Below, piece after piece: positions 14 to 11,232 of a stretch of 64,000 nt of DNA. The position numbers and the translations under genes are program-made. The stretch comes from an uncultured Chloroflexia bacterium (lineage in GTDB: Bacteria; Chloroflexota; Limnocylindria; Limnocylindrales; CSP1-4), in the NCBI GenBank assembly GCA_963800275.1, contig CAWDAI010000006.1, forward strand, positions 207,130 through 271,129, given 5' to 3'. The notes under the pieces were generated by a model, which searched no databases, had not been told where the DNA came from, and was given only the letters and a program-made list of their open reading frames with translations. Every line of letters begins with the position of its first letter. Position 1 is the stretch's first letter.

Positions 14-871
14 ATGAGCCTGGCCTTGCCGCGACCCGTGTTCGATGCCGCCGGTGCGCCGGTCAGCGTGCTGCTCGACTTCGACGGCACCATCACCCGC
101 CAAGACGTGGGCGACATGCTGCTGGCCCGACTGGTCGAGGACCAGGACCTGGTGCGCCGCATGGACCAGCTCTACATCGAGGGCGTCAAGGGATCGCGCG
201 AGCTGATCGCCTGGGACATGGAGGTGCTGCCGCGAGATCCCGGTCCGCTGCTGGAGGTGATCGACAGCCTGCCCCTGGACGAGAGTCTCGTAGAGCTGGT
301 GGCGGCTGTGCGTGAGGCCGGTGCTGCGATCGAGATCGTCAGCGACGGCGTCGGCTTCCATGTCGAGCGCATGCTGGCTCGCCTCGGGCTGGAGGAGCTG
401 CCCATCGCCACCAACGCCAGCCAGCTCGGTCGCGGGGGCGAGGGCGTGACCTTCCCCTATGGCCACCCTGCCTGCCTGGTCTGCGGCACCTGCAAGCGCG
501 AGCGCATCCGGCGCCATCGCGACGCTGGTCGGGCGGTCGTCTTCGTGGGTGACGGACCCAGTGACCGCTACGCCGCGCACCACGCGGATGTCATCTTCGC
601 CAAGTCGTCGCTGGCTGGCTGGTGCGAGGTCGAGAACGTGCCCTATGAGCCCTGGGACCGCCTGGCGGACGTGGCCGAGTGGCTGGAGCTGGCCCTGCTC
701 GACGGCCGCCTCCCGGCTGACGCTGCCGACTATCCCGCATGGGCCATGTCGGCGCGGCCGGAGGTGGAGGACTTCATCTGTGGCCCAGAGCTCTGGGGTG
801 CGGGGCGCTTGGTCCCACCGGGCTCGGTCGACCGCACCGCACTGGCCGGTCCCGCTTCAGAACAGCCCTGA
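14..871 (+). CDS. HAD-superfamily (subfamily IB, MtnX/phosphoserine-phosphatase-like) hydrolase
   Basis: Complete 285-aa ORF. N-terminal LLDFDGTIT motif (HAD motif I: DxDGT). C-terminal Cys cluster CLVCGTCKRERIRRH, as in MtnX-like HAD-IB enzymes. Confidence 0.6.
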   Translation: MSLALPRPVFDAAGAPVSVLLDFDGTITRQDVGDMLLARLVEDQDLVRRMDQLYIEGVKGSRELIAWDMEVLPRDPGPLLEVIDSLPLDESLVELVAAVREAGAAIEIVSDGVGFHVERMLARLGLEELPIATNASQLGRGGEGVTFPYGHPACLVCGTCKRERIRRHRDAGRAVVFVGDGPSDRYAAHHADVIFAKSSLAGWCEVENVPYEPWDRLADVAEWLELALLDGRLPADAADYPAWAMSARPEVEDFICGPELWGAGRLVPPGSVDRTALAGPASEQP

Positions 872-1096
872 CCGCACCCCTCACGCACCGCGACTGTCCC
901 GCACCAGCGCGCACGTCCGTGCACCACACCTGACCGCCCCGACCTTGAGCCCTCTCGGGCCACGCCCCCCGCACGCAAGTACGGGGTCATCTCCAGCCAG
1001 TGCGGCGGTACGGTGACGTCGGACGCAGATGCGACCTGCGACAGCTCTCCTGCGAGGGCGTCGTGCCCACCGGCAGCAGCGACGGAGCCAAGGCAC

Positions 1097-1669
1097 GTGA
1101 GGTCTTTCGCCCAAGCCATCCGCCAACGACTCGGGGGGGTCAGCGCGATCCTGCCCGTAGGCCGCGGCGATGAACGCGGGCAGGGCATCGTCGAGTTCGC
1201 CATGGTCCTGCCCATCTCGCTCGTGCTCTTGCTGGCCGTGGCCGACCTGGCTCGCGCCTACACCACGATGGCGACGATCGAATCGGCAGCTCGGGAGGCG
1301 GCTGACTTCGGTGCCTACGGATCGGGCAACTGGGACCCGGCGAACGAACCGTACACCCGAGACTCGATGGAGGAGCGCGCCTGCACCGCCAGCCGGCACC
1401 TGACGGACTTCGCGGGCACCACCACCAGCTGCACCAACCCGGCCATCACCGTTTCGCTGGTCGAGGCCAACGGCAACCCCGCCACCGGCTGCGACGACCC
1501 CGAGCGCACCCCGGGTCCGTGCCGGGTGAAGGTGGACCTCGACTACACCTTCAACCTGCTGGTGCCCTTCGGCATCGACTTCGACGGCGTGCGCTTCGGC
1601 GTGCCCGACAGCTTCACCTTCCGTCGCACGAGCATCTTCGCCAACTCGGACTTCATGACCAACCCATGA
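1097..1669 (+). CDS. TadE-like minor pilin (module A, gene 1)
   Basis: In-frame GTG at 1097 inside ORF 1013..1669. N-terminus carries [28 protein letters not shown], a TadE-like prepilin segment. Stop overlaps the next start (ATGA). Confidence 0.6.
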
Positions 1670-2193
1670 TCGGACGACTGATGCGGCGGCTGACCGGCCG
1701 TCATCGCTCCCGCGGACAGGCTCTCGTCGAGTTCACGCTCGTGGCGCCGATGCTGTTCCTGCTCATCCTCGGGACCATCGAGGCTGGGCGGTTCATCTTC
1801 TTCTACGAGGTCATGAACAATGCCACCCGCGAGGGTGCACGCTACGCCATCGTCCACGGCGCCAATTCGACGTGCCCCAGCGGTCCGCCGCCGCCTGGCG
1901 AGGTCAACAATTGCGACCTGCCTGGCAAGAACGTGAAGACGGCGGTGGCCGATGCCGCTCTCGAGCTGGCCGGGGTCGGCGACCTCATCGTCTTCGACCC
2001 GGTCTGGACCAACCGAAGCACGCCTGCCAACCCCAGCCCGGGAGACGCCAGCTCGGGCACCAACGCTCGCGGCGAGTACGTGACCGTCTTCCTCGACTTC
2101 ACCTACCAACCGCTCGTGCGGGAGGTCGTGGACATCCCCTTCCTGCCGGACATCAACATCAGCGCGGAGTCGACCCTTGTCATCAACTACTGA
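1666..2193 (+). CDS. TadE-like minor pilin (module A, gene 2)
   Basis: ATG at 1666 overlaps the upstream stop (ATGA). [49 protein letters not shown] matches the TadE-like motif. Confidence 0.65.
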
Positions 2194-3580
2194 GCGACAG
2201 CGCGGGCAGGTGCTCGCCATCTTCGCCCTGAGCCTGACCGTCGTGCTCGGGGCCGGAGCGCTTGCCTTCGACGGCGGCCTGATGATCCTCGAGCGTCGCG
2301 ATGAGCAGAACGCGGCAGATGCGGCGGCCATGGCCGGTGCGCGCTACGTCACCACCGACCAAACAAAGGCGCGCGACGTGGCTGCGAGCGTGGCCAGTGA
2401 CAATGGCTTCACCGCCGGCGACGGCCAGGAGATCGTCACGGTCAACATCCCGCCGGCTACGGGCAAGTTCGCGACCTGGCCCAATGCCATCCAGGTCGAC
2501 ATCCGGAACACACGTCCCTCTATCCTCGGTGCGGTCATGGGCTTCCTCAACTGGCCCGTCAGCGCCACGGCCACGGCTGCCTCGTTGGACAACGTGGGCG
2601 GTCCGTTCTCAATGCTCGCGCTCGAACCGCACGAGTGCAAGGGCATCCTTGTCGCAGGCTCAGGGGGCATCGTGGCCAACGGCAACATCCAGGTGAATTC
2701 TGACTGTCCGGACTCAGCTCTCATGCGGCAAGCCGGCGGTACGATCACGGTCACAGCGGCTGGCGCAGCGTGCAATGTGAACGGTGGCATCAAGGATGAC
2801 GGAGGCCAAGGCGACAACCTCCACTGCCTCACGGTGACTGGGGCGCCGGTAATTCCGGATCCGCTGGAGGCCCTGCCGGACGTGACGATGCCGTCGTTCC
2901 CGCAAGCGCCCGCGAAGATCGGCCACAACAAGCAAACCCCAACCGGTTGCCCGGGTAGCAACAAACCCGCCACGCTCGACGCGCCCGCCGAGTGCAAGTT
3001 CGGGGCCCAGCTCAAGGACACCACGTGGCGCCTCTATCCGGGTGTGTATCCCGGTGGCATCACCATACTGGGTGGGAACTTCTACCTGGAGCCAGGCATC
3101 TACTGGATCGGCGGAGGCGGCCTATCAATTGGCGGCAACGGCTCGTTCATCGAGTCGGTAGAGGCGGGTACAACCACGATCGGCGGTGGCGTCCTCTTCT
3201 ACAACACAGCAATCTCAGGTTCACCGCTCGGGGTCATCGACCTCAATGGCGCCTCGGCCAACATGCACCTGATGCCGCTGAACATGCCCGCAGGTACGTG
3301 GCAGTCCACTTGGAATGGGTTGATCATCTATCAGGACCGTTCCTACACCAGCGGCGCGAACGATCTCACCGTGAATGGGAACGCCTCCGTGGGCATGGAC
3401 GTCCGAGGCACCATCTACCTGCCTGACGGCGAAGTCGTCATCAATGGCAACAACGGCGACCTGGTGATGGACCAGATCATCGCGCGAACGTTCAAGGTCA
3501 ACGGAGACAGCGGCGACATCCTGGCCCTGAAGGACACGGACAACATCTACAAGTTCAACGCCGCCGGCCTCGTGGAGTAG
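2177..3580 (+). CDS. TadG-like (Tad/PF13400-type N-terminus) pseudopilin with large Gly/Asn-rich beta-rich C-terminal region (module A, gene 3)
   Basis: N-terminus [53 protein letters not shown] matches the TadG-like N-terminal pattern. 467 aa. The C-terminus is rich in G/N/T repeats typical of TadG. Confidence 0.65.
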   Translation: MSSTTERQRGQVLAIFALSLTVVLGAGALAFDGGLMILERRDEQNAADAAAMAGARYVTTDQTKARDVAASVASDNGFTAGDGQEIVTVNIPPATGKFATWPNAIQVDIRNTRPSILGAVMGFLNWPVSATATAASLDNVGGPFSMLALEPHECKGILVAGSGGIVANGNIQVNSDCPDSALMRQAGGTITVTAAGAACNVNGGIKDDGGQGDNLHCLTVTGAPVIPDPLEALPDVTMPSFPQAPAKIGHNKQTPTGCPGSNKPATLDAPAECKFGAQLKDTTWRLYPGVYPGGITILGGNFYLEPGIYWIGGGGLSIGGNGSFIESVEAGTTTIGGGVLFYNTAISGSPLGVIDLNGASANMHLMPLNMPAGTWQSTWNGLIIYQDRSYTSGANDLTVNGNASVGMDVRGTIYLPDGEVVINGNNGDLVMDQIIARTFKVNGDSGDILALKDTDNIYKFNAAGLVE

Positions 3581-3618
3581 CCGCCGGCCCGGCCCGGGCC
3601 TCAAGATCACGAGTAGGA

Positions 3619-3660
3619 CCCCTCCCTCGGACAGCATGTCCGGCGGAGGGGTTCGTTCTT
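3619..3660 (+). terminator. Rho-independent-like terminator after pilin module A
   Basis: CCCCTCC...GGAGGGG 7-bp GC stem (3619-3651) followed by TTCGTTCTT. Sits 40 nt after the TadG-like stop. Confidence 0.45.
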
Positions 3661-3858
3661 GTGCGCTCAGGTGTTAAGCAGGGTGCGCCAGCCGTTGACT
3701 TCCATCGCCACTAATCGCGCTTCGGTGTGGTCGAAAAGTACCGGGGAGCGTACCATCGTAATGTGGTTCGGGGGACCACTGGTCACAGTCGCCGGTCCTC
3801 CTCCTGGACCCGAGTCCTGAGCGCAGGCCCACGTGGGCCCGACTAGGGGGAATGGCCA

Positions 3859-4845
3859 GTGAAGCGCATCGCGGGTTCCCTGCGATCCCGCCATCGAGAC
3901 GTTTCGACTCCAGGGACTGGCCTCACGCGTTCGCGCGGCCAGTCTCTGGTGGAGTTCACCCTGGTCATTCCGGTGCTTCTCCTCATCGTTTTGGGTGCGC
4001 TTGACTTCGGCCGAGCGTTCATGGGTTGGATCGTCCTCAACAATGCTGCACGGGTCGGTGCGAACTACGCATCTCTGTATGCGCCCGCGTGGAATGGTGG
4101 TGTCAACGCGAGCACCCGCCAAGACGCGTACGAGCAACTCGTGGCAGGCGCCAGGAGAGAGGCGGCAGGTGTCTTCGCAGGCTGTGATGACGAGGTTGTG
4201 CCGAGCCCTGCTTTCCCGAGTGGGTATGAGATCGGTGACTATGCCGTCGTCGAGTTGGATTGCGGATTCCAGCCGATCACACCTCTGATCGGGGAGATCC
4301 TCTCTTCAGGTGGTGGCACCTTGCCAGTCGGAGCGAAGGCCGTGTTTCCGATTCGCACGGGCAAGATCGACAGCCCTCCCGAGGATCCGGCGGGGCTCTG
4401 CAGGTCCACTTTCACGTATCAGGCGGAAGCTGAGGACCCGCACGCGGTTCAGTTCACGAATACGACGGCTGGCGGGAGCGGGATATTCGCTTGGGACTTT
4501 GGGGATGCGGAGTACGAGGTCGTCGAGAACCCGCTGCACATCTATGAAGAGGGTCGGGCTTACAGCGTGACATTTCAGGCCGGCGGCTGTACTTCGATCA
4601 CCTACCCGGTGCTGGTGCTCGATGAGGCACCGGAGGATCCACCCCCACCTGGCGACACCCGCTGCCAGGTTCCGGTATTCGCCGACACATTGAATACTGG
4701 CGCCATCGCACTCTGGTCAGATGCTGGGTTCACCGGAACCATCACATACATCCCTGCGGTCGGCGAATGGACGGTTGCATCGCAGACGTTGGTAGGCAAC
4801 TCCCTACAGGCCTGTGATGAGGACATCACCTTGAGGAAGAAATAG
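3859..4845 (+). CDS. TadE-like minor pilin fused to a PKD domain and a Cys-bracketed C-terminal module (module B, gene 1)
   Basis: GTG start, N-terminal RGQSLVEFTLVIPVLLLIVLGALDFGRAF. PKD signature at aa ~181-254 (FAWDFGDAEYEVVENPLHIYEEGRAYSVTFQAGG). C-terminal CQVP...WSDAGFTG...C module. Confidence 0.65.
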   Translation: MKRIAGSLRSRHRDVSTPGTGLTRSRGQSLVEFTLVIPVLLLIVLGALDFGRAFMGWIVLNNAARVGANYASLYAPAWNGGVNASTRQDAYEQLVAGARREAAGVFAGCDDEVVPSPAFPSGYEIGDYAVVELDCGFQPITPLIGEILSSGGGTLPVGAKAVFPIRTGKIDSPPEDPAGLCRSTFTYQAEAEDPHAVQFTNTTAGGSGIFAWDFGDAEYEVVENPLHIYEEGRAYSVTFQAGGCTSITYPVLVLDEAPEDPPPPGDTRCQVPVFADTLNTGAIALWSDAGFTGTITYIPAVGEWTVASQTLVGNSLQACDEDITLRKK

Positions 4846-4853
4846 GACTGGCC

Positions 4854-5321
4854 ATGGACGACCAGTGCCAAGCCAAGACCGTCCCCGCGGCGAGGGAACA
4901 TCAGCTCGGTGGGGGGTTGGTGGAGTTCGCCCTGGTCCTGCCATTGCTCGTGCTTGTGATGCTTGGGTTGTTCGACGGTGGCCGGGCGATCATCTTCTAC
5001 TCAGAGTTGTCGAACGCCTCACGCGCCGGCGCTCGCGTGGCAATGGTCAACCAGTCGAACGATGCGAGTTGCTCGGGTAGCGAGCCCACGTTCAAGTGCG
5101 CCGCTGCTGCGCAGACGAGTGGTACTGGACTGACCGCCTCTGATATCGGCGACCTCACGATCGAGGGGGACGACTGCGCCCTCATCAACGCATGCAGTGT
5201 GACAGTGAAGGTGGAGTACACCTACGAGCCGATCACACCGGTCATCGGCGACCTGATCGGTCCGATCGATCTGGTGGCTGAGTCCACGATGCCCATCGAA
5301 CGCCAGCACACGGGCCCATAG
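4854..5321 (+). CDS. TadE-like minor pilin (module B, gene 2)
   Basis: [47 protein letters not shown]. 155 aa. Confidence 0.65.
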   Translation: MDDQCQAKTVPAAREHQLGGGLVEFALVLPLLVLVMLGLFDGGRAIIFYSELSNASRAGARVAMVNQSNDASCSGSEPTFKCAAAAQTSGTGLTASDIGDLTIEGDDCALINACSVTVKVEYTYEPITPVIGDLIGPIDLVAESTMPIERQHTGP

Positions 5322-5324
5322 GAG

Positions 5325-6533
5325 ATGCACATGGACACGAGGCACTTCGGCTCGCGCGAAGGAGGGCAAGTCTTGCCACTCTTCGCGCTTGGGCTTGTCA
5401 CCCTCATCGCTGCCATCGCGCTCGTGCTGGACGGCGGCTTCGCTCTCGCGAAGCATCGCGAAAGCCAGAATGCGAGCGACGCGGCGGCCGAGGCTGGCGC
5501 AGTCGTCTTGGCGGAGCACCGATCTGGTGCCGACCGAACGGATTCCGAAGTGTGGGATGCCGTACAGGGTGTCCTCACCGCGATGGGCATGGATGTTGTT
5601 GGTTCCAGCGCCGAGTACACCAGGATCGATGGGACCGGACTTGGGCTGATGGTCGGCGAGAGCGGCGGTTCTGCGTCCGCCCCACCACCAGCGGCGTGGG
5701 GAGTCACCGTCAATGGTTCGTTGCCTGTCGACACCTTTTTCGCACGCGTCATCGATATCGACGAGTTCGACGCAGCGACGACGGCAACTGCCATAACCGG
5801 GTATGGCAAGCCCGCGGGAACTACGCTGCTTCCTGTCACGCCACCGATCACGATGGTCACGTGTGATGGCACCAACCGGCCGCTGAGCACGGCAACGCGA
5901 TGGGGCACAGAACAGATCTACAAAGTGCCCCTGTGCTCCAACGGTGCCGGCAATGTCGGTTGGTTGGATTGGTCAGACGAATACGACGAGAATGAGGGGG
6001 GCGGCAAGGTCGAGATCGAGGACCAGATCAGGAGTCCGTACATTCCCCCTCCAGGGATCTTGATCCCGGCGTGGCACCAAGTAGCCGAGACTGGCAGCCC
6101 GAACAAGATCGGGATCGAGGACGCCCTGCGAGAGCACGACGGTGAGATTGTCCTTCTTCCTATCTTCGATGCATGGTGCACAGGAGACGTGGAGCCGAAC
6201 AGCGACGGGGTTCTGGACTGCCCTGAGGGCGATGTGAGCCCAGTCGAGAGCCCCGATCCCAGTAACCCAGGTGGCGGCGCCAAGATGTGGTATCACCTCC
6301 AGGAGATCGCCGCGTTCGAGCTTTGCTCGCCGGCGATTGACGGCTGCACCGAGCATGGTGCGTACATCAACTCAGCGACCGAGGCCACCCAGATCTGCGA
6401 ATCGGGTAACGGATCCACGCGTTGTCTCGTTGGCAAGTTCGTCAACTTCATCCCAGGCCCGGGTTACGTCACCGGCGAGCTCGATACCACGGCTGGGCCT
6501 TCGAACTTCCTCGTCATCCAACTGATCAGGTAG
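5325..6533 (+). CDS. TadG-like pseudopilin (module B, gene 3)
   Basis: EGGQVLPLFALGLVTLIAAIALVLDGGFALAKHRESQNASDAAAEAGAVVLA, a TadG-type N-terminus. 402 aa. The 3-nt gap to the previous gene suggests co-transcription. Confidence 0.65.
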   Translation: MHMDTRHFGSREGGQVLPLFALGLVTLIAAIALVLDGGFALAKHRESQNASDAAAEAGAVVLAEHRSGADRTDSEVWDAVQGVLTAMGMDVVGSSAEYTRIDGTGLGLMVGESGGSASAPPPAAWGVTVNGSLPVDTFFARVIDIDEFDAATTATAITGYGKPAGTTLLPVTPPITMVTCDGTNRPLSTATRWGTEQIYKVPLCSNGAGNVGWLDWSDEYDENEGGGKVEIEDQIRSPYIPPPGILIPAWHQVAETGSPNKIGIEDALREHDGEIVLLPIFDAWCTGDVEPNSDGVLDCPEGDVSPVESPDPSNPGGGAKMWYHLQEIAAFELCSPAIDGCTEHGAYINSATEATQICESGNGSTRCLVGKFVNFIPGPGYVTGELDTTAGPSNFLVIQLIR

Positions 6534-6535
6534 GT

Positions 6536-6561
6536 CCCGACGCTCCAGCAGCGGAGTCGGG
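6536..6561 (+). terminator. Hairpin after pilin module B (possible terminator, no U-tract)
   Basis: CCCGAC-g-CTCC agcagc GGAG-t-CGGG, immediately after the stop at 6533. Confidence 0.3.
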
Positions 6562-6877
6562 CCAGGTTGGGCCGGGAGGAGAACAACTGCGGTGCGGCAC
6601 GCCCTTGTGGTCCCATCGCAGACGTCGGGACAGCCATCCGAGCCATACGTTCACGAATGCTAGTCGAGTTTGACGGCTGCATCAGGCATAGCCTCCAGAT
6701 TTCCCGGTTCTGGTCCATGGTGGACCGCTGGACACCAGTGCGGTGATGTGCAGTCACGCCGTTGATTCCTGTCAGCAGAAAGGCCCAGCGCGCCTATGCA
6801 CTTTGGTCAGGGGACGGTACGATTGAGCCCAGCCGAGGTACCAAGGGTCATCCCTCTGCTGTTCGTCCGAGCGCCAG

Positions 6878-7789
6878 ATGCCTGCCCACTCTCCGGAGGC
6901 GAATGTGGAACCAAACAAATTCAGGGCCGGACCAGAGACCTCCCGGTCGTCATCGTCGCGGTCGGCTGGTCAGGCGCTCGTCGAGTTCGCGCTCGTGCTG
7001 CCCGTCATGCTTCTCCTACTGCTGATGGCAGTCGATTTCGGTCGTTTGTTCACGACCTACATCGCTGTCAACAACGCCGCGCGGGAGGGTGCGTTCTACG
7101 CTGCCGAGCACGCCAAGGACACCCCGTTCGACCAGTCGACGTTCAACGCCGCGGCGCGAGCGGCCGCAGAGAGGGAGGTCAACGTCCAGAGCCAGGGCGG
7201 AGAGGGCACGCTGTCGGTCAGCCTGCCGGTCTGCTCGGTCGCCGGGGTACCATCCAGCACAGTGTCGTGCGAGACGGCGGCTGCCAGTGGTGGTGTAACG
7301 GGCTACCAGGCCACTGTGACGGTCTCTCGGCCCTTCTCGCTGATCACCCCCATCGTGGGCGACCTCTTCGGCGGTTCGCTTGACCTGACCGCGACATCAA
7401 GCGCGCCGGTTCTGAACGCGCCGAGCGTGATCGTGCTCCCCGGGGCTTCGCCGACTCCTACTCCGTCGCCAACCCCCAGCCCGTCGCCTACCCCGAGCCC
7501 TACGCCCGACCCAGGAGCGTCGCCCAGTCCGTCCCCCGACCCGAACGCCAGCCCGACGCCCACCCCCTCGCCTACGCCTGAACCCACCTGCACAGTGCCC
7601 GACGTGACCTCGAGCGGCAACATCCACTGGTACTACAACACTGATCCCAACGCCCTCGATGCCTGGCAGGTGGCCAACTTCACCGGAGCGCTCGTGGACG
7701 ACACCTCCAACCAGAAGATCAAGAGTCAGACGCGCGCCGCCGGATCGGTGGTGGTGTGTTCCAGCAGCATGACTGTGAGCGACAAGTGA
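6878..7789 (+). CDS. TadE-like minor pilin with Pro/Thr/Ser-rich linker and Cys-bracketed C-terminal module (module C, gene 1)
   Basis: [30 protein letters not shown] motif. Alternative GTG start at ~6906 follows a GGAGG RBS. Linker [21 protein letters not shown]...SPTPEP (aa 189-236) precedes CTVP...WQVANFTG...C. Confidence 0.6.
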
Positions 7790-8352
7790 ACCGACATTCC
7801 ACCCGCACCCGCCAGGATGGCCAGACGCTCGTGGAGTTCGCCTTGGTCCTGCCGTTCTTCATGCTCATCCTCTTCGGGGTCTTCGATGCCGGACGGCTCG
7901 TGTTCACCAACTCGACCCTCTCCCAGGCGGCACGTGAGGGTGCGCGTCTGGCGGCCGTGGAGGCTGGCAACGTCGGTCTCAGCGACAGCGATTGCGTCGA
8001 CACCGCCGCCGATGTCGGGACCTCGGGTGGTATCGGTGCCAAGGTGTGCCCACCTTCCTTGACCTCGCTCAAGACGGACGTGGAGTCCGCCGTGGATCGG
8101 ATGACCGCGGCGGTCGGTCCACTAGCGGCCGTCTATTTCTCCTGCGACCCAGACGGCACGGAGCCGAGTGGCGCCTGGACCGAAACAAGCGAGGGCAATG
8201 GCTGTGACGACGGAAGTGGCAACAGCCTCGGTGCCACCGGCGAATTGGTCTCGGTGCGGATCGAGCACGCCTATCAACCCATCACGCCGGTCATCGGCGA
8301 GATCTTCGGCACGATCACGCTCAGCGGGTCGGCCAGCATGACCATCAACTAG
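7786..8352 (+). CDS. TadE-like minor pilin (module C, gene 2)
   Basis: GTG at 7786 overlaps the upstream stop (GTGA). N-terminus [40 protein letters not shown]. The ORF could extend to an ATG at 7756. Confidence 0.6.
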
Positions 8353-8361
8353 GAGGTCATC

Positions 8362-9426
8362 GTGACGGACCATTCACGGCAGAAGGGCCAAGCTCTTGCG
8401 CTCCTCGCCATCGCCTTGGCTGCAATCGTGGCTGGCGTCGCTGTCGTCGTCGACGGCGGATATGCGTATGCACAGCGTCGCGCCTCGCAGAATGCGGCCG
8501 ACTTCGCGGCGATGGCGGGCACTCGCCTCATCGGCCAGGCGCGGACGAACAGTTCCGTTAGTGGCGGACAGGTCCGGAGCGCGGTCGATACGTCGCTCAC
8601 CTCGAACGGTGCCTCGCTCGTCTCTGGCACATACATCGATGAGGACGGCCAGGCCATCGGTGCCCTCTCAACAGGCGGGTCGATCCCGCCGAACGCTTTT
8701 GGACTCGTCGTGCAGGCCAAGACAGACTGGCAGCCGTTCTTGCTCGGAGTCATCGGGATCACTGACTGGGCGGCCGGAGCCAAAGCCACCGCCAAGACGC
8801 CGGGCGAGGCGCTCGGCGGTGGGGTCATGCCGGTGGGGATCCAGGACTCTCAATTCGATGGCCTCGTGCCCTGTCCCATCACCGATCTCGGCACCTGCAT
8901 CGATCAGAACCTCACGTCGGGGGCACTCAACATCCCCGGGGGGTTCGGCTGGCTCAAGTTCGGCCTCCAAGGTACCGGGGGCAAGTGCAGCTGGACGAGC
9001 AGTCTGGGCATGATCGCCGACGGCGGCTGCCAGACCAGCAAGACCTACCTTGATTCGCAGATCGGCCCGCCGGCCGACTCGCACGGCTGCTGCACTGCGG
9101 TGGACCAGAGCGGCAGCGTGGACCTCATCGGCAGCCTCACCGGCAACGAGTGGGGAGACCTCAGCTTCTACATCGATAACCGTATCCCCGTTTGGGTGCC
9201 GATCTGGGACTCGCCGCAGGGAACTGGCGCGAACTCCTCCTACCACATCGTCGGATTCGGCGCGATCGTCTTCACCGGTGAGAACGAGCACGCCAAGTGG
9301 CTGGAAGGTGCGGCTATCGCAGATGCCTGCAAACCCGGTACGGCCATAACTGGCACGTCGTATTGCACGGAACCCGGTGGGCCCTTCGTCTTGGGCGCGA
9401 CCGGGGAAGTGTTCCTGGTGAACTGA
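8362..9426 (+). CDS. TadG-like pseudopilin (module C, gene 3)
   Basis: AGGAGG RBS, then GTG. N-terminus QKGQALALLAIALAAIVAGVAVVVDGGYAYAQRRASQNAADFAAMAGTRL. 354 aa. Confidence 0.65.
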   Translation: MTDHSRQKGQALALLAIALAAIVAGVAVVVDGGYAYAQRRASQNAADFAAMAGTRLIGQARTNSSVSGGQVRSAVDTSLTSNGASLVSGTYIDEDGQAIGALSTGGSIPPNAFGLVVQAKTDWQPFLLGVIGITDWAAGAKATAKTPGEALGGGVMPVGIQDSQFDGLVPCPITDLGTCIDQNLTSGALNIPGGFGWLKFGLQGTGGKCSWTSSLGMIADGGCQTSKTYLDSQIGPPADSHGCCTAVDQSGSVDLIGSLTGNEWGDLSFYIDNRIPVWVPIWDSPQGTGANSSYHIVGFGAIVFTGENEHAKWLEGAAIADACKPGTAITGTSYCTEPGGPFVLGATGEVFLVN

Positions 9427-9621
9427 GGACCAGGTCAGCATGGTCGCCCCGGCTCTGGAAACGAGCTGGCGCCGGCGGAGCGTGACTCGGGGTAGCATCG
9501 TCTGACGGGAGGGACCAGCCCTTGCCAGTCGGAGGAACGATGCGCCCCCACATGCTCCGTACCCTGGCCACGCTCGTGGCCATCCTCGTCTCGCTGCTGA
9601 CACTCGGCACCTGTCGCCTCC

Positions 9622-11232
9622 GTGGCGCAGAGCCCGGAGCCGAGCGCCGTACCATCGGCTTCCGCGTCGTCGGCGTCCGCGCCAACGGCCCCGGCCTCGG
9701 CCGCGCCAGCAGACGCCTGTGTCCAGCCCGAAGCCAGCCTCGCGCCGGTCGCCCAGGAACCGCTGTCCATCCCGGAGGACTTCCGCATCGCGCTGTTCGA
9801 CGGGGTCTGGCAGGGCATCCGCGACTACTACTGGGACCCTGACACCAACGGGCTCGACTGGGACGCGATCGGCGATGAGTACGCGCCGCTGATCATCCAG
9901 ACCGACGATGCCTACGAGGTCTACTCGCTGCTCTCGGAGATGGTCGGCCTGCTCGACGACCCCTACACCGGCTTCTTCGCGCCGGAGGACCTTGCCAGCA
10001 CGGAGGCGTTCAACGCCAGCTACGGCGGTATCGGTGCCCTCCTCGACACCAGCGCCGCGGGTGAGGACACCGACGGCCTGCGGATCATCTACGTCTTCGA
10101 TGGCGGCTCAGCCAAGGATGCCGGCATCCGTCCCCGCGACCGCATCGTCGCGGTGGAGGGCGACCCGTGCGCTCGCATCGCGGACATCCGCGGCCCGTCG
10201 GGCACGGACGTCACGCTGACCGTGGTCTCGCCGGGCGAGGAGCCGCGCGACGTCATGCTCGAGCGCCGCCAGATCGACCCCACCATCCGCCCCGTCGCGC
10301 ACCGGCTGGACGTCGACCCGACGGTCGGCTACCTGGGCATCATCTCGCTCGCCGGACAGGCGGGCATCGATGGTATCCAGCAGGGCCTGACCGAGCTCCT
10401 CCGCGGCGACCCGCTCGATGGGCTCATCATCGACCTGCGAGCATCCGACACGGGCGCGCCGGCGGTCACCATCTCCACGCTCGGGAACTTCGTCGAGGGT
10501 GAGGTCGGCGAGTATCACTCGCGCGTGGGCAACGAGCCCATCGAGATCGAGCCGAGCGACCTCTTCGACCAGTACGCCGAGGTGCCGGTGGCGGTGCTCG
10601 TGGACGAGCAGACCGAGGCCGATGCCGAGCAGCTGGCGGCGATCCTGCAGGACCAGGGCCGAGCGGTCATCGTCGGCGCCCAGACCTCCGGCCAGACGCA
10701 CGGCGTCGCCACCATCGACTTCCCCGAGGGCTCGCTGCTGCAGGTCGTGTCCTTCGGCTTCCAGCTCCCGGACGGCCGGACGCTGGAAGGGGAGGGCGTG
10801 ACGCCCGACGTGCCGGTCGAAGCTGACTGGCTGGCCTATCCGGAGTCGGAGGACCCCTTCATCCTGGCCGCGCTCGACGCGCTGTCGGCCCCGGTCGCCA
10901 GCCCGGGCCCGGAGGGTGGCTCGGCGCCCAGCCCGGCAGCCACCGCGCCAGGCCACCGAACCTGCGACCGCCGAGGCCTCGCCTGCCGGATAGAGGTGGC
11001 AGGCCACCTCGTGGCCCGGCTCGACCTCGATGAGCGGCGGGACCACGCGCTCGCAGACGCCCGCGATGACCGCCGGGCAGCGGGGTGCGAAGGCGCAGCC
11101 GGGTGGCAGGTCGCCCGCATCGGGCGGCTCGCCCCCGACGACCGGGCGCTGCCGATGGCGGTTGGCCGGATCCGGCTCCGGCACCGCCGCCAGCAGGGCC
11201 TTGGTGTAGGGGTGCAGCGGGCGCTTCGATGA
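9622..11232 (+). CDS. S41-family C-terminal processing peptidase (CtpA/Prc-like, PDZ + S41 domain); apparently frameshifted; catalytic residues possibly substituted
   Basis: PDZ-like GGIGALL...IRPRDRIVAVEG. S41 core VAVLVDEQTEADAEQLAAILQDQGRAVIVGAQTSGQTHG. The lipoprotein-type signal peptide (MRPHMLRTLATLVAILVSLLTLGTC, ATG ~9540 after a GGAGG RBS) lies in a different frame. The ORF runs ~240 nt past a plausible natural end (TAG in the +1 frame at ~10991). Confidence 0.55.
   Translation: MAQSPEPSAVPSASASSASAPTAPASAAPADACVQPEASLAPVAQEPLSIPEDFRIALFDGVWQGIRDYYWDPDTNGLDWDAIGDEYAPLIIQTDDAYEVYSLLSEMVGLLDDPYTGFFAPEDLASTEAFNASYGGIGALLDTSAAGEDTDGLRIIYVFDGGSAKDAGIRPRDRIVAVEGDPCARIADIRGPSGTDVTLTVVSPGEEPRDVMLERRQIDPTIRPVAHRLDVDPTVGYLGIISLAGQAGIDGIQQGLTELLRGDPLDGLIIDLRASDTGAPAVTISTLGNFVEGEVGEYHSRVGNEPIEIEPSDLFDQYAEVPVAVLVDEQTEADAEQLAAILQDQGRAVIVGAQTSGQTHGVATIDFPEGSLLQVVSFGFQLPDGRTLEGEGVTPDVPVEADWLAYPESEDPFILAALDALSAPVASPGPEGGSAPSPAATAPGHRTCDRRGLACRIEVAGHLVARLDLDERRDHALADARDDRRAAGCEGAAGWQVARIGRLAPDDRALPMAVGRIRLRHRRQQGLGVGVQRALR

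Follow-up and report, generated by a model that had tools for sequence, protein, structure and literature searches.

A tri-modular TadE-type minor prepilin with PKD and PASTA-like domains in a tandem array of Tad minor-pilin triplets from an uncultured Chloroflexota bacterium

The DNA analyzed here is a stretch of 64,000 nucleotides (the window) from an uncultured Chloroflexia bacterium that GTDB places in the lineage CSP1-4 of the Limnocylindrales (assembly GCA_963800275.1, contig CAWDAI010000006.1, positions 207,130 to 271,129 of the forward strand). Within this window, B1 is the first gene of module B, the second of three tandem triplets of Tad minor-pilin genes, and it encodes a TadE-type minor prepilin with three modules: an N-terminal pilin module, an internal PKD domain and a C-terminal PASTA-like domain. 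A first-pass annotation of the sequence had proposed that a PKD domain is embedded in a TadE-like minor pilin and that the fusion makes B1 a pilus-presented adhesin. The fusion is borne out by the homologues of B1, a family profile, the AlphaFold2 (AF2) fold and a match to Pfam TadE (PF07811), and the PKD domain indeed lies C-terminal to a genuine TadE prepilin module. The PKD domain as the adhesive element, on the other hand, is not established by our analysis, as an additional end domain had been overlooked and the PKD domain is internal and present in zero to two copies among relatives. Presentation on a pilus is suggested by analogy with published systems, and we favor with moderate confidence a reading in which B1 is a modular minor pilin that, with its neighbors B2 and B3, would form the priming or tip complex of a Tad (type IVc) pilus.

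Residues 181-254 of B1 are a PKD Ig-like domain. The peptide on which the annotation drew (…VQFTNTTAGGSGIFAWDFGDAEYEVVENPLHIYEEGRAYSVTFQAGG…) is found exactly in the translated open reading frame (ORF), and the domain carries the signature W212-D-F-G-D-A … H227-I-Y … G232-R-A-Y-S-V-T-F. Taken alone, the window copy remains below the Pfam gathering thresholds, with PKD_4 matching residues 196-239 at E=3.6e-4 (21 bits vs 27) and PKD (PF00801) scoring 12.8 bits vs 23.5 (E=0.12). A phmmer search of B1 against the PDB returned PKD domains only, at E=5e-4 to 0.5, among them those of ColH (5e-4), the M. mazei S-layer protein (0.03) and ColG; these searches could have come back empty of PKD or Ig-like matches and did not. 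The PKD homology is established through the family, because the orthologues and the family profile match strongly where the window copy is sub-threshold. PKD_4 (PF18911) is matched at E<0.01 by 28 of 28 aligned orthologues (best 1.3e-20) and PF00801 by 27 of the 28, and W212 of the WDFGD motif is invariant across the alignment. When compared with the PDB, the family profile reaches the PKD domain of ColH at E=2.3e-20, 1l0q at 4e-16 and PrtV PKD1 at 4e-11, in addition to the M. mazei S-layer PKD and Epp. An exhaustive HMMER search of representative sequences aligned residues ~180-260 with very large proteins that contain multiple PKD domains, in which as many as 74 stretches match; these proteins dominate the result, which supports PKD homology and gives no usable family size.

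The predicted structure points in the same direction. The AF2 model has a predicted local distance difference test score (pLDDT) of ~86-97 across the PKD segment, and the top 15 Foldseek matches of the B1 model in the PDB are PKD or PKD-like domains. Vibrio Epp PKD1 (6aem) and PrtV PKD1 (4l9d) superpose on B1 with a target-normalized template-modeling (TM) score of 0.77 and a root-mean-square deviation (rmsd) of 2.1-2.2 Å over 82-83 columns. We found 117 B1 homologue clusters, and ~73 of these carry both TadE and PKD among their precomputed Pfam domains, while a few add FN3. These data bear on the idea that the PKD signature is coincidental, or stems from a chimeric ORF created during assembly or annotation. 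The sub-threshold Pfam score of the single sequence could be taken in its favor, as could the public annotation, which has a different start and no recorded Pfam domain. Against it stand the identical 328-aa product obtained from two independent assemblies, the ~73 clusters that share the TadE and PKD combination, the invariant W212, a profile E-value of 2e-20 and fold matches up to a target-normalized TM score of 0.77, and we regard this idea as refuted.

The discrepancy with the public annotation lies in the start codon. The public gene model, P0001, is 274 aa long and begins at M55, and it therefore omits the leader and the α1 helix. The mis-started portion maps to window positions 3859-4020. 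The conserved form of B1 is the 328-aa version with the GTG start, the orthologues align starting at the leader in the multiple alignment, and an AGGGGGA sequence resembling a Shine-Dalgarno element lies 7 nt 5′ of the GTG. The start at M55 thus conceals the pilin nature of B1 in the database entry.

The restored N-terminus is that of a TadE-family prepilin. Pfam TadE matches residues 27-68 at E=3.3e-15 with 56.4 bits (cut-off 22.9), and B1 carries a cleavage-type motif, G↓xxxVEF, that is common to six of six TadE-like ORFs of the array. From this motif, B1 would be cleaved after Gly27. The site is followed by a hydrophobic stretch and, in the AF2 model, by a 46-residue α1 helix (residues 28-73), with pLDDT values of ~83-96 in the pilin module. 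Across the whole protein the AF2 model has a mean pLDDT of 85 and contains three well-folded, separate domains joined by low-confidence linkers; the pLDDT drops to 44 at residues 169-178, between the TadE and PKD modules. In orthologues the linker between the PKD and PASTA-like modules is rich in Pro, Ser and Thr (P/S/T) and is 6-37 aa long. The pilin, PKD and PASTA-like domains contain one conserved Cys pair apiece (Table 1), which is consistent with B1 being exported and disulfide-bonded. Conservation in the family drops outward along the protein, from 71% in α1 to 46% in the pilin body, 40% in the PASTA-like domain and 37% in the PKD domain. A search of B1 against NCBIfam assigned no family.

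The third module, residues 269-328, was overlooked in the first-pass annotation. In the AF2 model this end domain consists of strands at 268-270, 295-298, 316-318 and 323-326 and a helix at 279-288, so that one helix packs on a small sheet. Foldseek places it on a PASTA domain of PknB (5e12_A) over 65 columns with probability 1.00, and on that of the penicillin-binding protein (PBP) PBP1 (7o4c) over 63 columns with an rmsd of 2.4 Å. The full-length family profile matches PknB (2kui) with E=8.7e-5 at profile positions 276-336, and a profile of the domain alone does so with E=0.028. PASTA (PF03793) is the only recurring Pfam family here, being matched at E<1 by 9 of 18 aligned copies (best 2e-5). 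We refer to the domain as PASTA-like rather than PASTA because the window copy itself has no Pfam match. Its divergence is also evident in the comparison with C1, the first gene of module C: a pairwise BLASTP of the two C-termini is insignificant (E=0.16), and their homology becomes clear only in the multiple alignment, through the shared C-x-V-P…W…F…Q…C columns.

The domain architectures of B1 relatives provide a rationale for reconsidering the role of the PKD domain. Full-length TadE relatives contain zero to two PKD and zero to three PASTA-like units, arranged as pilin-PKD-PASTA-like, pilin-PKD-PKD-PASTA-like, pilin-PKD (one or two copies) or pilin-PASTA-like (one to three copies). Where a full-length relative has a PASTA-like unit, this unit forms the C-terminal end, with a single exception, and the PKD domain lies between it and the pilin module. 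In one subclade (P0019, P0020, P0022, P0023, P0027 and P0032) WDFGDG is replaced by W-F/L-W-V-V/F-E-G-P with the remaining PKD scaffold kept, suggesting relaxed constraint on the canonical PKD motif. The proposal of the first-pass annotation, that the PKD domain binds protein or carbohydrate and is itself the adhesive element presented on the pilus, has several points in its favor. B1 does contain a PKD domain, and it is well folded. Among the PKD-containing relatives with solved structures, some belong to collagenases or to surface proteins that bind glycans (7kv5-7, ColG/ColH), and the PKD domain can be terminal, as in nine relatives with a pilin-PKD or pilin-PKD-PKD architecture and a tail of no more than 10 aa. 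Nonetheless, in B1 and most orthologues a further domain is distal to the PKD domain, the variable copy number and the degenerate WDFGD motif of the subclade are as expected of a structural spacer, and the paralogue C1 lacks a PKD domain yet keeps the PASTA-like end. The PKD domain as adhesin is thus a possible but rather doubtful reading. Given its internal position, its variable copy number and its partial degeneration in one subclade, the domain is at least as likely to act as a stalk or in an auxiliary role. The recognition head is more plausibly the terminal PASTA-like unit, whose ligand, by analogy with PASTA domains, may be a wall glycan.

A model for B1 can be drawn from published analogies, namely Myxococcus KilL/M/N, Caulobacter CpaL and S. 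sanguinis PilB. B1 would be made as a prepilin, be cut by a TadV-type peptidase after Gly27 and enter the filament via its hydrophobic α1 helix, with Glu at mature position 5. The products of B1, B2 and B3 would constitute a heterotrimeric priming or tip complex. The PKD and PASTA-like modules, probably stabilized by disulfides, would be extracellular and hang off the pilin module on the flexible Pro-rich linkers, with the PKD domain serving as a stalk or as an auxiliary glycan- or protein-binding unit that projects the terminal PASTA-like unit away from the filament. Triplets A, B and C would then equip the cell with a choice of three tip complexes that differ in their distal decorations. Of this model, processing, trimer formation, pilus incorporation, tip location and the ligand are inferred.

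Several observations weigh against this model. The window copies of both added domains are divergent, the PKD domain being sub-threshold in Pfam and the PASTA-like domain having no Pfam match at E<1, and the inter-domain geometry of the AF2 model is unreliable, with a predicted TM score of 0.47. In the published Myxococcus complexes, known as Tips, the variable distal domain is on the TadG/KilN subunit and not on the TadE-like one (PMC12075869). In addition, the Flp pilin, the TadA/CpaF ATPase, TadB/C and the prepilin peptidase were not found in the 64-kb window, in the 3.6 kb upstream of it or within ±10 kb of close relatives. The link between B1 and a working Tad machine in the source genome is therefore presumptive.

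Flp and secretion-ATPase motifs were sought by regular expression in the window and in every fetched locus, using ORFs from all six frames. This identified CpaF-like ATPases in three loci (L013, L043 and L063). L013, from a Chloroflexota metagenome-assembled genome (MAG), encodes at 5467-10480 a REC-ParA protein (TadZ-like), a T2SSE protein (TadA) and two T2SSF proteins (TadB/C), followed directly by a B1-like TadE, which shares 35% identity with B1 in the pilin module. It is the only fetched locus that physically joins the B1 pilin lineage to the Tad core. Two further candidates were rejected: a secretion-ATPase motif in L023 sits in an ABC-transporter-like ATPase, and an upstream 53-aa ORF considered as Flp encodes a transmembrane peptide that is not Flp-like.

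The missing core genes also bear on a different view of B1, in which it is not a filament subunit at all. Here the TadE N-terminus would be a membrane anchor or pseudopilin stub, and the PKD and PASTA-like domains would reside in the wall zone, where they might, for instance, bind peptidoglycan of the same cell and so guide or anchor the Tad machine as it crosses the thick envelope of a monoderm-like Chloroflexota cell. Consistent with this view, pilus core genes were not found near B1 or its close relatives, the PASTA matches obtained are to PknB and a PBP, whose PASTA domains are wall-associated, and Chloroflexota envelopes are reported to be atypical. The prepilin cleavage-type motif, the Glu at +5 and the conserved α1 (71% identity), however, are features selected for filament packing, a short TadE gene and a TadG-like gene are inherited together with B1, in agreement with tip or priming trimers, and linkers that are long and rich in P/S/T point to reach more than to anchorage. 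A wall-zone anchor is therefore unlikely, and the modular tip pilin is the reading that we carry forward. The coordinates of B1, its modules and the surrounding array are collected in Table 1.

Table 1. Positions in the window of B1, its modules and the neighboring features of the minor-pilin array
Feature	Position	Strand	Details
B1, tri-modular TadE-type minor prepilin	3859..4845	+	ORF, 328 aa; GTG start; stop 4843-4845
B1 leader peptide, residues 1-27	3859..3939	+	Putative prepilin-peptidase-type site RSRG27↓QSLVE32F, read from sequence
B1 pilin module, residues 28-168	3940..4362	+	α1 helix 28-73 plus small α/β globular part; Cys109/Cys135
B1 flexible linker 1, residues 169-180	4363..4398	+	RTGKIDSPPEDPAGL region; Pro-rich; pLDDT <50 at 169-178
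B1 PKD domain, residues 181-254	4399..4620	+	WDFGD at 212-216; conserved Cys181/Cys244
B1 linker 2, residues 255-268	4621..4662	+	DEAPEDPPPPGDTR; Pro-rich
B1 C-terminal PASTA-like domain, residues 269-328	4663..4842	+	Motif C-x-V-P…W…F…Q…C; Cys269/Cys319 pair
B2, short TadE-type minor prepilin, 155 aa	4854..5321	+	Pfam TadE 51 bits; second gene of module B
B3, TadG-like large minor pilin, 402 aa (called as 400 aa from 5331)	5325..6533	+	Pfam Tad PF13400 34 bits
Module A	1097..3580	+	TadE 1097-1669; TadE 1681-2193; TadG-like with Tad_C 2177-3580
Module C	6878..9426	+	TadE C1 6878-7789; TadE 7756-8352; TadG-like 8362-9426
Terminator-like hairpin with U-rich tail, between modules A and B	3616..3665	+	Followed by UUCGUUCUUGUG; just 3′ of the module A TadG stop

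B1 is embedded in three tandem paralogous TadE–TadE–TadG triplets (window positions 1097-9426), whose distal decorations differ from triplet to triplet. In module A, A1 has no extension and A3 is the longest of the TadG-like proteins, with a long C-terminus and a Tad_C domain. In module C, C1 has the PASTA-like C-terminus after a Pro/Thr-rich linker and has no PKD domain. Residues ~179-239 of C1 are a long Pro/Thr/Ser linker of a type common among extended extracellular linkers that may be glycosylated, and they produce spurious weak NCBIfam matches (SslE, TonB). A Pfam search found no von Willebrand factor A (vWA) domain among the nine array proteins. The array is syntenic in many Chloroflexota MAGs. 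When the nine array proteins were compared by tblastn with loci recovered from GTDB representative genomes, 23 of which were examined (L001-L023), 17 of these 23 had a B2 homologue and then a B3 homologue immediately 3′ of the B1 homologue. Many MAGs labeled Chloroflexota, Chloroflexia, Anaerolineaceae or Limnocylindria have adjoining A, B and C modules, with L002-L008 as examples. In another locus (L084), PIN/PhdYeFM toxin-antitoxin genes lie between TadE–TadE–TadG triplets. Homologues of B3 carry the JGI name TadG, and its AF2 model (pLDDT 83) has a long N-terminal helix and a β-rich body. Comparison of this model with the PDB gave nothing significant, the best match being to aminopeptidase 'pita-bread' folds (E=0.095). 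Many Cys, Trp and Gly positions of B3 are invariant.

The hairpin between modules A and B suggests that these are separate transcription units. The 90 nt at 3581-3670 fold with -50.9 kcal/mol (z=-4.7), and none of 200 shuffled sequences was as stable. The hairpin is absent from the output of a simple consensus terminator scan, and a scan for σ70 promoters across window positions 800-9700 found none. The G+C content is 0.62-0.66 across the minor-pilin array (window positions 2001-10000) vs ~0.67-0.74 in the remaining window. Directly 3′ of module C and on the same strand, positions 9622-11232 encode a peptidase of the S41 / Tricorn_C1 / PDZ C-terminal-processing type; the 3′ end of this ORF overlaps ABC-transporter ORFs on the minus strand, making its true stop or extent uncertain. 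The remaining window consists of chromosomal housekeeping genes, including those for CTP synthase, Rho, leucyl-tRNA synthetase, a DnaE-type polymerase and ABC transporters, and nothing beyond PfkB, an indigoidine_A-type protein, a HAD protein and hypotheticals is encoded in the 3.6 kb available upstream of the window.

The concept behind B1 is left as it was, since minor pilins built from modules, variable Tad tips and genomes with several paralogous triplets for such tips have all been published before. What is of mild interest is the extension on a TadE-type subunit, the PASTA-like head and a three-cassette array conserved in a soil lineage that is uncultured. We found no description of a TadE-PKD or TadE-PASTA pilin in the literature; a search combining TadE, PKD and pilin gave a single, unrelated genome report. 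The B1 family is recurrent in metagenomes, where automatic annotation names it merely 'PKD repeat protein' or 'hypothetical', and our analysis exposes the mis-started public gene model of 274 aa. The Tad minor pilins of Chloroflexales are uncharacterized, and the B1 family offers a concrete case of a tip that would be customized on the TadE-type subunit. In addition, the PKD and PASTA-like modules are small, well-folding and probably disulfide-bonded, which makes them tractable targets for ligand screening that would show what uncultured soil Chloroflexota adhere to. It is tempting to speculate further that soil Chloroflexota of this Limnocylindria-like lineage keep three alternative Tad tips, two of which would end in PASTA-like heads, on PKD or P/S/T stalks, that recognize peptidoglycan or wall glycans of other cells. 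We consider this very improbable; if true, the pilus would be a wall-sensing device for partner or prey recognition or for filament cohesion, a function undescribed for any pilus.

At the level of single domains, both added modules of B1 have well-known counterparts. The PKD domains of ColG/ColH, Vibrio PrtV/Epp, the M. mazei S-layer protein and Bacteroides SGBP-B have the same fold and the same WDFGD…H.Y…G.Y.V motif. Unlike in these secreted or surface proteins, the B1 PKD domain is a single copy between a pilin module and a PASTA-like domain, has Ala in place of Gly after WDFGD and possesses the extra conserved Cys181/Cys244 pair. Likewise, the PASTA domains of PknB-type kinases and class B PBPs have the same small α/β fold of ~60 aa that begins with x-V-P, and the tandem PASTA-like repeats in B1 relatives, up to three, are as in kinase and PBP PASTA proteins. 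The B1 domain differs from these in being very divergent, in its family-specific flanking Cys pair and in being carried on a pilin rather than a kinase or transpeptidase.

Modular pilins were established with S. sanguinis PilB, which carries a vWA domain, and the PilC lectin is another example, with 264 architectures catalogued (Raynaud et al. 2021, PMC8179133). Pilin-PKD architectures are rare in Dataset S1 of that study, which lists IPR012902-IPR000601-PF18911 three times and IPR012902-PF18911 twice, together with one PASTA-containing architecture. These pilins and B1 are alike in having an N-terminal pilin module, a short linker and a grafted non-pilus module, which the filament presents or, in the case of B1, would present. 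However, the pilins of the survey are defined by the type IV pilus class III signal motif IPR012902, which leaves TadE-family (PF07811) Tad pilins outside it, whereas the B1 N-terminus is of the TadE type, and B1 is tri-modular, with both PKD and PASTA-like domains.

In the genomes of cultured Chloroflexales, no type IV pili other than Tad pili have been reported, and tadEEG triplets have been described for this order (PMC7332563). Caulobacter crescentus CpaL, a TadG orthologue, is a Tad minor pilin fused to a vWA domain and is predicted to be at the pilus tip with CpaJ/K (PMC12607857). CpaL and B1 are both Tad-system minor pilins with an added domain, which in CpaL is of the adhesion or mechanosensing type, and CpaL is predicted to be in a tip trimer with two small minor pilins. 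The module of CpaL differs from those of B1 in that it is a vWA domain with β-rich inserts on a TadG-type subunit.

A close parallel to the array as a whole is provided by the Tad-like Kil pilus of Myxococcus xanthus, whose KilL, KilM and KilN subunits are homologues of TadE/F/G and, by prediction, assemble into heterotrimeric 'Tips' (Herrou et al. 2025, PMC12075869). The Kil Tips are encoded in four paralogous clusters, partly away from the core genes, and are disulfide-rich with exposed variable domains; specific combinations are genetically required to kill different prey (PMC12075869). The same authors predict TadE/F/G tip complexes in other bacteria too, and report the Kil-associated tip1-4 genes as restricted to Myxococcota. 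The Kil Tips and the array containing B1 are alike in consisting of TadE/F/G-homologous triplets with prepilin sites, in several paralogous clusters per genome, and in having extra modules and many Cys pairs. They differ in where and how they are extended: in the Kil Tips it is the TadG-like KilN that bears the variable distal domain, for which there is no homologue in the PDB, while KilL has wrapping extensions only, whereas in the window array the TadE-like first subunit, B1, carries recognizable PKD and PASTA-like modules on flexible linkers. Furthermore, the clusters of the window are in tandem while the Kil clusters are dispersed, and the host belongs to the Chloroflexota and is not a known predator. 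With these differences, the three-cassette array parallels the interchangeable Tips of predatory Myxococcus.

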